This document shows, piece by piece, positions 19,189 to 24,347 of a DNA stretch of 28,293 nt (the stretch's first letter is position 1; each line of letters starts with the position of its first letter). The notes beneath the pieces are model-generated. The model ran no database searches and had not been told where the DNA came from. It worked only from the letters and a program-made list of their open reading frames with translations. The position numbers and the translations under genes are program-made. Location: NCBI GenBank assembly GCA_035905735.1, contig JAMIGL010000023.1, positions 1-28,293 on the forward strand, given 5' to 3'. Source of the stretch: Minisyncoccota bacterium (GTDB lineage: Bacteria > Patescibacteriota > Minisyncoccia > Phycocordibacterales > UBA9973).

Positions 19189-19189
19189 G

Positions 19190-19262
19190 AGCCACCTCCG
19201 AGAATCGAACTCGGGACCTACGGTTTACGATACCGTTGCTCTACCAGATGAGCTAAGGTGGC
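19190..19262 (-). tRNA. tRNA-Thr(CGU), CCA not encoded
   Basis: Cloverleaf GCCACCU/AGGUGGC; D arm GCUC/GAGC; anticodon arm ACGGU-AUCGUAA-ACCGU; T arm CCGAG-UUCGAUU-CUCGG; discriminator U. Confidence 0.96.
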
Positions 19263-19393: not shown

Positions 19394-22300
19394 CTACCGA
19401 CCCTCTATAACCTTCCTCGTCACCGGCCCCAGATTCCCTGTACTTCTGATGCTGTTTGCGAGTTGGAGCTTTCTGAGTGCAGCTTTGGTCGCAAGCCCGA
19501 AGTATGCTGTTTCATTGCCTGGTGAGCCTGGACCAGCAGGTGCGATGATGAAGCCGTTGGTATTGAGATAGCGTTGGAGTGTGGTGACATCAGGGCCGGT
19601 CATACCAGGATAGAGATCACGGGTGAATGAGGTGGGTGTAGAAGGAATAGTTGGGGCAGATGATGGACATGGTGCACCGGTGTTGGAGTTGAAGCGGTGG
19701 CCAGGAGCACAGGAAGGAATAGTTGTCCGAGGAGCAATGAACCCGACAACTGTTTGCTGTGGAGGAGTTGATGGAGGGAGAGAGGGTTCGGTGGGAGTCG
19801 CAACACTGAACGAGATCGTGTAGTCAGTCGCATTGGTGTTTGCTTGCGCGTCGGCGCACTTCACATAATATAAGTATGACGTGCCGTTAGTGAGGCCAGT
19901 GACGGATGAAGAATGTGTCGTGTTTGCAGTCGTTGAAAAGGAGGTCATAGAGCCGTACGCGGTTGCGGCAGACGTGCTGTATTTGCACGTTGCAGTTTCA
20001 TTCGTTGAAAGCGAGATGTTGGTGCCGGTGGTGCCAAATACGAGAGTGCCTGACGGTACCCCTGCTGAACGCACCGGTGCCGTATTGTCGACGGTGACGC
20101 TGAAGGATGAAGCGGTTGCAGTGTTCCCTGCCGCGTCGCGAACAACCGCACTCAAGGTATATGCACCATCTGAAACAGTGGTACTGTCCCAGGCGATGCC
20201 GTAGGGTGACGTGGTGTCCTCGGACTGAAGGTTTGAACCGTCGAGTTTAAATTGGACACCGACAACACCGATATTGTCGGAAGCGGATGCGATAATGGAG
20301 ACTGAGGAGCCTGCGACGGTTGCAGCGTTTGCGGGTGCGGTGAGGGAGACGGAAGGGTTCGTGATGTCGGGGTCGTACAGAGTTGTAGCTGTATCTAAAG
20401 AAAATTCTGCAGGAAGATCATATGTACTACTATCAAGCAGTGCTGGTTCTGGCGTTGTATAGTTTGAATATACCCCCGAACCGATCGATACGGTTATAGG
20501 TAAAGCAGCGGCAGTGCTTAGATTGACCGTTGCTGTACCACCACTAACACTGACTGAACTGATTGAAACAGCAGAGCCATTTCCCTTCACTGTTATATAG
20601 CCAGTACCAGAAAGGAGTGTTACGGGTAAATTTGTATCAGTAAAGTTCAATAGTATCGTTGTTCGAGCTGAATCATACGTCGCCGATGAGAGCTGAGGGC
20701 CGGTTCCATCGGTGCCACCATAAAAATACTTGCTGATAGCAGCCCAAAATCTATCACCGACTTTAGTAAGAGCTTCATCGGTTCTATAATGAACACCATC
20801 ATCCGTTGGAATATCATACAGAGTGGGACCCTGGATCGCATTCGTATTCGTCGCCCAGATATTTTTCTGTGCCAAGCGGATTTTATCGGCATTAGCACTT
20901 GTGGCTCCTCCATAACGGTTCCCGATCTGCGCCACCACTGTCCTGATTCCTTGGTTGGTATATACCGTATCAATGAACGTATTGAGTTGAGATTGATAGG
21001 TTGCAGTTGAATTTCCGTTTGATGCATCGGTCTCTCCCTGGATCCAGAGAATTGCTTTCGCTCCACCGACAGCAAGTATCCTACGGTACATCGAGCCAAA
21101 CAAGGTGGCTGGGTCAGAAAGATTACCGCCGGGCTGCCATTGACTTATCGCTGTCGCCCCACGAGCAGCCGGGACGAATGCAATCGGCACATTCTGGCTT
21201 GCAAGAAAACGAGTCGCTATTTGCATATAAATAGTACCGCCGATAGTTGCACCATCTGCAGGCGCATCCCTACTTACAAGATCAACCTGATTCGTATAAT
21301 CATCCAATGGATCAACCAATTCCTTCCATTGATCATCATTGCCGAACATGGTTGCTTTATAGGTAGGATTCGAATATGCCTGATTATTCGTCCCGGCCCC
21401 CATCGCATTACTCTGTCCTGCCACGATGAATATATCGCCGATACCAACATAACTCTTGCTATTTGAAATCGAAGTGTCATTCGTAAAACGCACAGTCAAT
21501 GTCCCCTGTCCTGCATTTTGGTTTAAAAGCGTTCCAGAAAATATTCCTCCGCTAGGACTTGTAACAATGGTCGCATACACTCCCCCATTCCAGGACGCTT
21601 CAATAGAAGTAGGTGTACCTCCATATGTTCCCGTAATAGCAATAGAGGCCTGATTACTTCCATTACGTTGTATTACTTGGTAAGAACTCGGAGAAATAAT
21701 ATTTATGGAAGGACTAGCGTTTAAGCTTGCGTATTCAAGTCCACTTCCCGCATTATAGAGAGTCGTTCTATCTACACTATTGAGCACACGCTTCCATACT
21801 CCTACTGCATCAATCCGGCCGTTCATGAGACTCGATATACCTTGACTTGCAGAACCCAAGGCAAAGGCGGCCGTACCATTGAATACTCCGGACGAATACG
21901 CACTAGAATTCACCGTGCCATTATTCACTTGGATATTGATCGTATTGCTGACTGAGTCATGCCAGGCGACGACGTAATACCAGGTGTTTATTGAAGGAGA
22001 ACCCAGGGCGTCGGCAAATATACTTGCACCAGAACTCCCGTCTGAACTGACAAAAAACTGAAAACGGTCATTCACTAAATTATATTGGATGAGATATTCT
22101 CGTTGATTTACTCCATTTGAATCATACTTCGAAACAACGGTTCTATTATCGGTCTTGTCTCCCATATAGACCCACCCCGAAAGAGTGAAGTCAATATCAC
22201 CCATACTAAGCCTTGCATTATCGGCAACGCTTAAATAATTACTCCCTGAAAAATTTGCAGCTGTATTAATCTTGCCTGCCGCCGAACCAACGCTTCCCGT

Positions 22301-23721
22301 ATCAGCCAGGTTGCTCCCAGTAGTACTATCAGCACGAGTACCGCTCGTCTCATTGAGATTCCAAAATCCAACAAGGCTGTTTGACAAGCCAATTGGCGTT
22401 GCAGCGCTCGTGCCTGAAGGAGTGCTCGTACCGATGCCATTAACAGCGCTTACTCTGAAATCATACGACGCACTGTTGGTAAGTCCTGTCACAGTTGCTG
22501 ATGTAGTGGTCGAAACTCCATCAGAAAAAGTAGACCAACTTGGATTACTCGTCAGCTTGTATTCAACTATATAATCACTGATCGAAGAACCTCCATTTGA
22601 GACTGGTGTCATCCATGACAGAGATGTCGTTGCGTCACCAACAATAGTAATAAGAGATGTTGGCGAACCTGAAACTGTAGGCAACGTAGGAGTTGCAGTA
22701 CTAGTACTCGATACAGCACTTGTTCCAATACTATTAATTGCCGAAACCCTAAAGTCATAACTTGCGCCATTGGTCAGACCAGTAACAACTGCAGAGGCCG
22801 TCGCACTTGTTCCATCAGAAAAGGTTGTCCAACTACTGTCTGCACTTAATTTATATTCGACAATATAGTCACTGACAGCTGAACCATACGATGAAGGAGC
22901 TGTCCATGACAATGCCACCTGTGCATTTTCCCCATTGGCAACGAGCGAAGTTGGGGAAGAAGGGGCAAATGTTTCCACTCCGTTTCCTGAATTATACAAA
23001 GACGTACGCTCACCAGCCGAAAGCACACGCTTCCATACTCCTACTGCATCAATCCGGCCATTCATAAGGGCGGATGCTCCATTATTGGCTGCTCCGATGG
23101 AAAACGAGGCTGTTCCGTCAAACACCCCTGTCGAGTGAGCACTAGAATTCACCGTGCCATTATTCACTTGGATATTGATCGTATTGCTGACTGAGTCATG
23201 CCAGGCGACGACGTAATACCAGGTGTTTATTGAAGGAGAACCCAGGGCGTCGGCATTTATGGTCGCAGTACCAGTACCTGTTCCACTAGGGCTCACATAA
23301 AACTGGAAACGATCTACAGACTGATTGTACCAAAACAAGTATTCAATCTGGCTTGTCGATGACAAATATTTTGAAGCGATAGTCCTACTAACACTTTTGT
23401 CTCCCATATAGACCCACCCCGAAAGAGTGAAATCTACATCACCTGAACTCAGGGCTGTATTATCTGAAATCGAGAGATGGTTTGATCCTGAAAATAAGGC
23501 TGCATTACTAATTTTTCCCGTCGCTGAACCAACCGAACCGGTATTGCTGAGAGTGTTTGATCCTGATATATCAGCACGAGTACCACTTGTTTCATTCAAA
23601 TTCCAAAAACCGACAAGATTGTCGGTGAGTGCCGCATGGGTTGTACTAGCTGGAACTAAAAAGAATACCCCCCCAGAATAAGTATTGCTATAAGAAACCG
23701 AAAAGGCTTAAGAAATTTCAC
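19394..23721 (-). CDS. Giant secreted surface protein (~1442 aa if the frame is restored): signal peptide - LamG - FN3 x2 - LamG - SGNH/SASA O-acetylesterase - Ig-like - FN3-like - Pro-rich linker - PG-binding domain; frameshifted at a G7 run
   Basis: The 1401-aa ORF 19394-23599 has no plausible start of its own. GTG at 23721 gives MKFLKPFRFLIAILILGG, which joins VFFLVPASTTHAALTDNLVGFWNLNETSG if one G is added. Esterase motifs are GQSN, QGE and DGVH. The C-terminus reads DLYPGMTGPDVTTLQRYL...YFGLATKAALRKLQ. Confidence 0.85.
21783..23431 (-). repeat. Intragenic direct repeats between the two LamG domains
   Basis: Identical blocks: 21900-22016 = 23139-23255 (117 bp), 21783-21820 = 23022-23059 (38 bp), 22155-22189 = 23397-23431 (35 bp). 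Confidence 0.9.
23668..23674 (-). repeat. G7 homopolymer in the signal-peptide coding region
   Basis: CCCCCCC on the plus strand; G8 would fuse the two frames. Confidence 0.9.
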
Positions 23722-23727
23722 TTATCA

Positions 23728-23736
23728 ATTTTACCA
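23728..23736 (-). promoter_or_regulatory. Extended -10 (TGg-TAAAAT) 6 nt upstream of GTG 23721 (leaderless-type)
   Basis: Minus strand reads gTGgTAAAATtgataaGTG, preceded by a T9 run. Confidence 0.7.
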
Positions 23737-23758
23737 CAAAAAAAAATAGTTGTACTCA

Positions 23759-23790
23759 TAAAAATATCCCCTGAAATGGGGATATTTTTA
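23759..23790 (-). terminator. Intrinsic terminator ending the ribosomal protein block after rplE
   Basis: TAAAAATATCCCC-tgaaat-GGGGATATTTTTA. Confidence 0.85.
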
Positions 23791-23810
23791 TTACAAAATG
23801 AGTAGTAGGT

Positions 23811-24347
23811 TTATTTCTTGAACGGAATACCGAGATGTTCAAAGAATGCGACGGCTTCTGCCTTGGTCTTTGCGGTGGTCACGATGGTGATCGCAAGTCC
23901 AAAGACATCGCGGAGGTCTTCGTCAGATGTTTCTGGAAAGATAGTGTGCTCCTTGATCCCGATAGTCATGTTACCGATAGCATCAACTGCTTTCTTGTCG
24001 ATACCACGGAAGTCCTTGGTACGAGGAAGTGCAACATGGATGAGCTTGTCGATGAAATGCTGCATGCGTGCACCACGGAGGGTGACTGCAACACCTACAG
24101 GATCCCCTTCACGAATCTTGAAGCTTGCCACTGACTGCTTTGCAGCACGGACAGTCGGACGCTGACCGGTGATACGAGCGAGACGATCCATGACCATGTT
24201 GTTGGTCTCACGATCTTTCTTCATGCGAGTACCGGTACCAGATGCGATCACGATCTTTTGGAGACGAGGTGCGGCAAGCTTGCTCTTGTATGCAAATTCC
24301 TTGAGTGCACTGACGGTTTCTTCTTGTTTTTTCTTGGTGAGTTCCAT
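23811..24347 (-). CDS. rplE: 50S ribosomal protein L5
   Basis: PRLQKIVI, ITGQRP, FKIREGDPVGVAVTLRG, PRTKDFRG, GLAITIVT. Confidence 0.97.
   Translation of the reverse strand: MELTKKKQEETVSALKEFAYKSKLAAPRLQKIVIASGTGTRMKKDRETNNMVMDRLARITGQRPTVRAAKQSVASFKIREGDPVGVAVTLRGARMQHFIDKLIHVALPRTKDFRGIDKKAVDAIGNMTIGIKEHTIFPETSDEDLRDVFGLAITIVTTAKTKAEAVAFFEHLGIPFKK

Follow-up and report, generated by a model that had tools for sequence, protein, structure and literature searches.

The 28,293-nucleotide (nt) stretch of DNA analysed here (contig JAMIGL010000023.1 of assembly GCA_035905735.1), which comes from an ultra-small wastewater bacterium and is referred to as the window, carries on its minus strand a giant gene for a predicted surface protein, located downstream of the ribosomal protein gene rplE. 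A run of seven guanines (G7) in the signal-peptide codons of this gene separates the frame of the start codon from that of the gene body, and alleles with eight (G8) or nine (G9) guanines were detected in other assemblies. The allele in which the whole gene is in a single frame is termed ON and the frameshifted alleles are termed OFF. The features of the locus, in window coordinates, are as follows.

19394..23632, minus strand: body (mature part) of the surface protein, an open frame with its stop at 19394-19396, defined by stop-free translation
23633..23721, minus strand: signal-peptide coding region, 30 residues in the ON allele, interrupted by the G7 frameshift
23656..23658, minus strand: premature TAG, which ends a 21-codon OFF-frame peptide
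23668..23674, minus strand: poly-G tract, G7 here and thus of OFF length, established from the sequence and from the alleles in other assemblies
23708..23710, minus strand: TAA, which closes the long frame upstream
23719..23721, minus strand: GTG start of the full-length gene; the annotated ON allele starts here and orthologs start at the equivalent place
23728..23736, minus strand: extended -10-like box TGgTAAAAT, 6 nt before the GTG in a leaderless-type arrangement
23738..23746, minus strand: run of nine thymines (T9) in the promoter spacer, length-polymorphic and directly upstream of TGg-TAAAAT
23759..23790, minus strand: 13-bp hairpin plus U-run, intrinsic terminator of the rplE operon
23811..24347, minus strand: rplE (ribosomal protein L5), the upstream neighbour, assigned by Pfam and used as the anchor for retrieving other strains

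Minus-strand translation from the GTG at 23721 yielded the peptide VKFLKPFRFLIAILILGGYSF, which ended at the TAG at 23658-23656. This frame reads K F L K P F R F L I A I L I L, followed by CTG GGG GGG and finally TAT TCT TTT TAG; the G7 run is composed of the last G of CTG and of GGG GGG and occupies codons 16-18 of the open reading frame (ORF), within the signal peptide. The long frame comprised 1,437 codons up to the stop at 19394 and contained no ATG, GTG or TTG upstream of a TTG at 23599, from which the 1401-amino-acid (aa) database call starts. As the TAA at 23710-23708 closes the long frame, the gene body has no start of its own before this TTG, which is positioned well within the first LamG domain. 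The TTG was also the first candidate for an internal start that might save the OFF allele, and was rejected, its product having no signal peptide. With eight guanines, the tract reads CTG GGG GGG GTA (L-G-G-V), and the start, the signal peptide and a 1,412-residue mature protein lie in one frame (ON); with either seven or nine guanines, translation ends 4 to 10 codons past the tract (OFF). The tract is among the longest runs of the genome and is a homopolymer of slippage-prone length within the 5' coding region. An earlier reading made from the letters of the window (the sequence-only reading) had listed these features, and all of them were found in place; its statement that the long frame was stopped at 23708-23710, with no start before a TTG in the LamG domain, agreed with the translation.

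The same reading had predicted that one additional G would fuse a typical signal peptide to the 1401-aa ORF, and a matching G8 protein exists. Protein P0124 (1442 aa; GCA_964517945.1), a member of the database cluster of the 1401-aa product, has the N-terminus MKFLKPFRFLIAILILGGVFFLVPASTTHAALTDN, and the DNA encoding it has a G8 tract. The leader of P0124 matches the predicted fusion exactly, consisting of MKFLKPFRFLIAILILGGVFFLVPASTTHA followed by ALTDNLVGFWNLNETSG. Its gene is located on contig CAZFFL010000002.1 directly downstream of rplE, the same position as in the window. A 270-nt alignment of the two DNA sequences detected G7/G8 and T9/T8 as the sole differences. Across 8,882 aligned bases, the window and GCA_964517945.1 were 99.7% identical, with 22 substitutions and 2 indels, both of which were the two tracts. 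The 1401-aa 'TTG-start' protein present in databases is an artefact of the OFF allele.

The distribution of tract lengths was examined in Logan contigs aligned to the window, in contigs found via the exact L5 protein and by a G7-specific word search. The material consisted of consensus contigs, each assembly providing one tract length. The word search utilized two sampled 31-nt words, and the runs given for it below are among the matches listed.

G7/T9: the window; Logan's independent assembly of the probable source run (X1)
G7/T8: SRR26192725, SRR26192739, SRR26192750, SRR26192775 and X2 (one activated-sludge/wastewater study); X8 (freshwater)
G7 words only: runs of one aquatic and one groundwater study; two RNA-seq runs (X29, X30)
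G8/T8: X6, SRR12712865, GCA_020049755.1, GCA_964517945.1
G9/T8: GCA_020047435.1

G7 was found again in at least five independent DNA studies. In all of the alignments, which spanned 2.4 to 8.9 kb, the G tract and the T8/T9 run were the only sites of indels. No substitutions were detected in the giant gene between the window and L029 (4.3 kb), L030 or L032 (4.05 kb each), and the 22 to 25 single-nucleotide polymorphisms (SNPs) separating the window from three other assemblies were all within ribosomal-protein genes. The lengths G7, G8 and G9 thus differ by non-multiples of three between otherwise identical copies of the gene, and the frame is opened or closed accordingly. The pseudogene that the sequence-only reading had allowed for, with G7 fixed and the downstream ORF decaying, does not describe this locus, as the gene has 0 substitutions relative to the ON allele. 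Searches with the N-terminal part of the protein (P0124:1-107) returned no N-terminal fragment proteins of the giant gene, and exact-pattern scans for the variable G tract gave no match in JGI metagenome contigs or GTDB genome contigs.

Three flanking SNP haplotypes were distinguished, namely A (the window), B (12 SNPs) and C (16 SNPs). G7 was present on all three. Haplotype C carried G7 (X8), G8 (X6, L029, L030 and L034) and G9 (L032), indicating that the tract changed length at least twice in a period in which more than 4,000 sites around it stayed the same. As a rough estimate, the mutation rate of the tract would exceed that of an average site by at least about three orders of magnitude. 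Twelve of the SNPs were located inside 124 nt of rplE (23862-23985), with spacings that were all multiples of 3 nt, and four further SNPs of rplE were located at 24216-24246. All 16 leave L5 unaltered, an exact match to the L5 protein having been the basis on which each strain was retrieved. These SNP clusters, by which haplotypes A, B and C are defined, have the appearance of recombination tracts acquired by import.

The other long G/C run of the genome served as a control for technical artefacts. This run is a G8 encoding T-G-G-G (C45:7916-7923 in G000) near the N-terminus of a 607-aa ABC transporter, in its membrane domain. The scan for further tracts of seven or more guanines in surface genes, proposed in the sequence-only reading, thus yielded one additional tract, but this was in an ABC transporter and was invariant. 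It was G8 and in frame in nine public assemblies, as determined by a look-up able to find in-frame copies only. The datasets with this control G8 included SRR26192725, in which the giant gene is G7, and SRR12712865, GCA_020049755.1 and GCA_964517945.1, in which the giant gene is G8. The constancy of the control in datasets that differ at the giant gene rules out a technical artefact. These results indicated that the tract is a genuine ON/OFF site with a high mutation rate rather than a sequencing error.

Neither MutS (PF00488, MutS_V) nor MutL (PF01119, DNA_mis_repair) was found in any of 41 genomes, comprising the genome of the window (70.7% complete) and 40 others of the genus; 30 of the 41 were at least 90% complete. 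In a positive control, the same search gave matches in 11 of 14 control genomes. The check on mutS and mutL that the sequence-only reading had suggested thus came out negative for both across the genus. Long G/C runs were depleted in the 386.6-kb genome of the window, with only 2 runs of seven or more observed versus about 21 expected from base composition. The counts for each run length were as follows.

G/C runs of length 5: 175 observed, 308 expected, observed/expected 0.57
G/C runs of length 6: 16 observed, 71 expected, observed/expected 0.22
G/C runs of length 7: 1 observed, 17 expected, observed/expected 0.06
G/C runs of length 8: 1 observed, 4 expected

This depletion fits selection against slippage-prone runs in a genome in which no MutS or MutL was found. 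GGG was the rarest Gly codon (14.9%) and CTG a minor Leu codon (11.4%), and Gly-Gly was written as GGGGGG in 2 of 455 instances, versus about 10 expected. As GGG is rare and GGGGGG is avoided, the spelling of L-G-G-V with a G8 is not forced by coding needs.

The upstream region was examined for signals of transcription. The hairpin of the rplE-operon terminator had a folding energy of -21.4 kcal/mol (z = -6.25), with none of 200 shuffled sequences being equally stable, and was also matched by a terminator-like scan. The presence of this terminator upstream makes the giant gene its own transcription unit. The order of elements on the minus strand is T9, GTGG, TAAAAT, TGATAA and GTG (23721). A TAnnnT box was present 6 to 7 nt before the start in all five of the orthologous or homologous genes inspected, which include the genus orthologs in G014 (also after rplE), G002 and G036 and the homolog P0015. 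The retention of this -10 arrangement bears out the leaderless-type promoter proposed in the sequence-only reading and supports a leaderless design for the giant gene, as judged from the sequence. A strict two-hexamer scan for sigma-70 promoters detected no promoter at the giant gene, so that the promoter assignment depends on the extended -10 box and the conserved spacing in orthologs. The T9 allele was private to the strain of the window, all other strains having T8, and is one of only two runs of nine in the genome. A weak -35-like AGTACA is found on the far side of this run from the extended -10 box, and the spacer is 17 nt with T9 versus 16 nt with T8. An effect of the T8/T9 difference on promoter strength is possible.

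Pfam domains were assigned to the protein in the order LamG_3, two FN3, LamG_3, SASA/SGNH esterase, Big_7, FN3-like and a C-terminal PG_binding_1. Signal-peptide cleavage in the ON allele is predicted between THA and ALTDN. Homologs have a hydrophobic leader followed by a conserved motif, (H/Q)A before the cleavage site and A(L/I)TD(N/S) after it. We infer from these domains that the protein is a secreted lectin/esterase bound to the wall or peptidoglycan. In the orthologs and more distant homologs inspected, the signal peptide and LamG were in a single frame, which indicates that the in-frame state is ancestral. The first 60 nt of the ortholog signal-peptide regions (L007, L009 and L005) carry A7, A8 or T7 runs in Lys and Phe codons; the T7 of L007, at +50, has nearly the same position as the G tract, at +47. 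The two LamG modules represent an internal duplication (21783-22016 versus 23022-23255) that is 86% identical over 234 nt, and the short-read contigs of several runs end at about 23402, near a smaller repeat. Due to this duplication and these repeat-linked contig breaks, few public assemblies hold the whole gene. Relatives of the L5 protein were named as Paceibacterota, Minisyncoccia or Patescibacteria. These names place the organism among the candidate phyla radiation (CPR) bacteria, the assignment that had been made from the sequence.

The giant gene is an accessory gene. In L031 (3597-3680) and L025, which have an identical L5 protein, rplE is followed directly by a virD4/TraG-like gene; in L029 (10538-15007), the giant gene, with a terminator, a promoter and a 3' terminator of its own, is located between these two genes. 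The giant gene was 100% identical across strains, while the flanking ribosomal genes differed by about 0.3% to 0.7%, which suggests that the cassette (window 19413-23810) has spread recently by recombination. The homology between the window and L029, which is from the ON-allele genome, stops 19 nt before the stop codon (window 19394-19413 versus L029:14936-14954), and the C-terminus is ...VTRKVIEGR in the window and ...VTRKFILTY in L029. Downstream, the window has tRNA-Thr(CGT) (19189-19262) and RNase R, while L029 has virD4-like and LTD genes. This difference in the 3' flank could be a rearrangement or a chimeric join. Sister strains with a 99% identical L5 have, in place of the giant gene, a 408-aa ORF of unassigned function after rplE. 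In one Logan contig this ORF is split into three by two G5-to-G4 deletions (L011:2155-3379 versus L012:2155-3381), with no substitutions in 3.5 kb between L011 and L012; either decay via homopolymer indels or a contig error would account for the split.

We consider it probable that the hypermutable simple-sequence tract in this accessory surface-protein gene is a slipped-strand ON/OFF switch, set to OFF in the window. Slipped-strand mispairing during replication would add or remove single guanines, and a MutS/MutL system to repair such slippage was not found. G8 alleles are ON, whereas G7 and G9 alleles leave the gene body without a start and an export signal, such that both ON and OFF variants of the lectin/esterase are present in populations of this Paceibacteria species. 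Reversion within a lineage may occur by the same process, and a benefit may derive, for example, from escape of phage or host recognition. The sequence-only reading had proposed an OFF-state contingency locus controlling host attachment. A hypermutable ON/OFF site with several tract lengths on one haplotype is established, whereas the adaptive use, the role in host attachment and the reversibility within a clone are presumed.

Several observations weigh against a dedicated switch. The role of the protein was assigned from its domains. No G run was present in the signal peptide of the orthologs in G014, G002 and G036, which represent three other species, or of the homolog P0015, so the check for a tract at this place in orthologs, suggested in the sequence-only reading, gave a negative result; the tract is therefore species-specific and young and may be accidental. 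The majority allele is G7 (OFF), a distribution that also fits a dispensable gene under loss, and the presence of G7 in all four runs of one study indicates that the majority state is stable on that scale. Furthermore, some of the G8 and G9 assemblies may share the study of X6 and are possibly not fully independent.

The same observations bear on an alternative in which the tract is a non-adaptive hotspot, where a G8 arose by chance in a dispensable gene and slips often for want of mismatch repair, and G7 and G9 represent recurrent loss-of-function alleles en route to gene loss. This explanation would account for the predominance of OFF alleles, for the accessory nature of a gene that is missing from L031 and L025 despite their identical L5, for the failure of orthologs to keep the tract and for the breakage of the other gene at this locus in a sister strain by two G5-to-G4 deletions. 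We nevertheless regard it as unlikely. The OFF genes were otherwise intact, with no substitutions and no other indels in at least 4 kb, and on one haplotype the ON allele has been retained alongside both a -1 and a +1 allele. Long G runs have been purged elsewhere in the genome, yet this tract persists through the rare codons CTG, GGG and GGG, and the signal peptide of a surface protein is a classical location for a contingency tract. Slippage would, in addition, be inherently reversible.

A further alternative is recoding, in which the G7 allele is expressed at a low level by a -1 ribosomal slip on G GGG GGG or by RNA-polymerase slippage. The tract is a formally perfect X XXY YYZ heptamer in the GTG frame, G7 is common, and G7 words were present in RNA-seq contigs. 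A tRNA-Gly(CCC) was not among the 27 tRNAs found in the 70%-complete genome, and as a result GGG may be decoded slowly. As in programmed -1 frameshifting in dnaX and insertion sequence (IS) elements, a -1 slip on this heptamer would yield the G8 product. Unlike those systems, there was no downstream stimulatory structure: the minimum free energy of a 106-nt segment starting 6 nt upstream of the tract (23680-23575) was -22.8 versus a shuffle mean of -23.4 (z = +0.18), and 110 of 200 shuffled sequences folded as well. Most documented cases of efficient transcriptional slippage involve A/T runs of at least 9, and G7 is short for such a process. The arrangement was also unconserved, and the in-frame G8 alleles in four assemblies, together with the single-frame orthologs, indicate that the shift has not been conserved as a programmed feature. 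Overall, recoding appears very improbable, although leakage at a low level may occur.

Homopolymer error with a true G8 everywhere, the assembly artefact that the sequence-only reading had kept in view, is scarcely credible: although indels are confined to the two longest homopolymers in the region, two G-run indels separate one pair of Logan contigs elsewhere and a pilin gene in another genome of the genus is likewise one G short, G7 was obtained by two assemblers for the probable source run and recurred in the independent studies, three distinct tract lengths exist, the control G8 was correctly assembled in those datasets and no further indel occurred across up to 8.9 kb.

The slipped-strand switch was compared with known systems. 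The closest case is pilC of Neisseria gonorrhoeae, for which a passage in PMC5354566, referring to Jonsson et al. 1991, describes ON/OFF switching by homo-G frameshifts in the signal-peptide region. In both cases, as far as that passage describes pilC, a surface or adhesion-related protein has poly-G within its signal-peptide codons, and a gain or loss of one G shifts the frame of the body; the change in pilC is ascribed there to RecA-independent slipped-strand mispairing, while slippage is presumed here. The host of pilC is a host-restricted pathogen, unlike the uncultivated wastewater/freshwater Paceibacteria examined here, and the present gene encodes an unrelated LamG/FN3/SASA-esterase/PG-binding protein, has an apparently leaderless mRNA and is described here by its tract-length alleles. 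Campylobacter jejuni and Helicobacter pylori have small genomes without the MutS/MutL pathway, and G/C runs of about 8 or more vary within and between their populations. Their contingency tracts are located in the 5' parts of genes for surface structures. The present tract is similar in being a poly-G run in the 5' part of a surface gene of an organism in which no MutS or MutL was found. Those species have dozens of tracts, whereas the genome of the window has two G/C runs of 7 or more, and the tract is short (7 to 9) and unshared with the orthologs of sister species. In CPR bacteria, a Gracilibacterium gene has a hypervariable, in-frame 9-mer repeat (PMC6851277). That case shares with ours slipped-strand-type variation in a gene for a surface or extracellular protein of a CPR bacterium and detection in metagenomic data; the 9-nt copy number alters the protein sequence, while the homopolymer produces an ON/OFF frameshift. 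Full-text searches on phase variation in Patescibacteria, CPR or Saccharibacteria brought up no homopolymer switch, and a homopolymer ON/OFF switch has apparently not been described before in CPR bacteria.

G/C runs of 8 or more were detected in 26 of the 40 other genomes of the genus, the longest being G13-G14, and about 27 of these tracts were inspected for gene position. At least nine of the inspected tracts (G/C 8-11) were located in the spacer between divergent bAvd-like (PF22296) and reverse-transcriptase (PF00078) genes, in cassettes of the diversity-generating retroelement (DGR) type. These were in nine genus-mates (L050, L051, L054, L056, L058, L061, L066, L068 and L071), at distances of 13 to 50 nt to either gene start, and may represent promoter-spacer switches or a conserved element of another kind; no mention of poly-G in the bAvd-RT spacer was found in the literature searched. 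A type IV pilin (N_methyl) gene (L063:1466-1560; G011:C1:12041-12048) had a G8 in its leader-peptide codons and a TATAAT box 6 nt before the ATG. The start frame of this gene stops past the G8, and a G9 would join it to the mature part, ...AFTLIELLVV, making the pilin leader a candidate second case in the genus of OFF by one G. Other tracts of the genus were in N-terminal hydrophobic segments of exported proteins or just upstream of starts. Homopolymer switches may thus be common in this genus, as far as tract positions indicate. We tentatively suggest, as a possibility with considerable doubt attached, that the tract is one member of a homopolymer 'phasome' in a Paceibacteria genus without detectable mismatch repair.

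Most CPR/Patescibacteria remain uncultivated and are believed to live attached to other cells; they have many giant surface proteins but few regulators. A segregating ON/OFF tract would mark display of the lectin/esterase as costly in some situations, for example during recognition by phage, host or predator. The ratio of G7, G8 and G9 provides a cultivation-free marker that can be applied to existing metagenome time series. The absence of MutS and MutL, neither of which was found here, would have the same consequence as in Helicobacter and Campylobacter. If the phasome proposal is true, it would represent the first description of a contingency-locus system in CPR bacteria, the promoter T8/T9 run and the coding G7-9 tract would constitute two layers of control in the giant gene, and surface display, and perhaps DGR mutagenesis, would be toggled stochastically.

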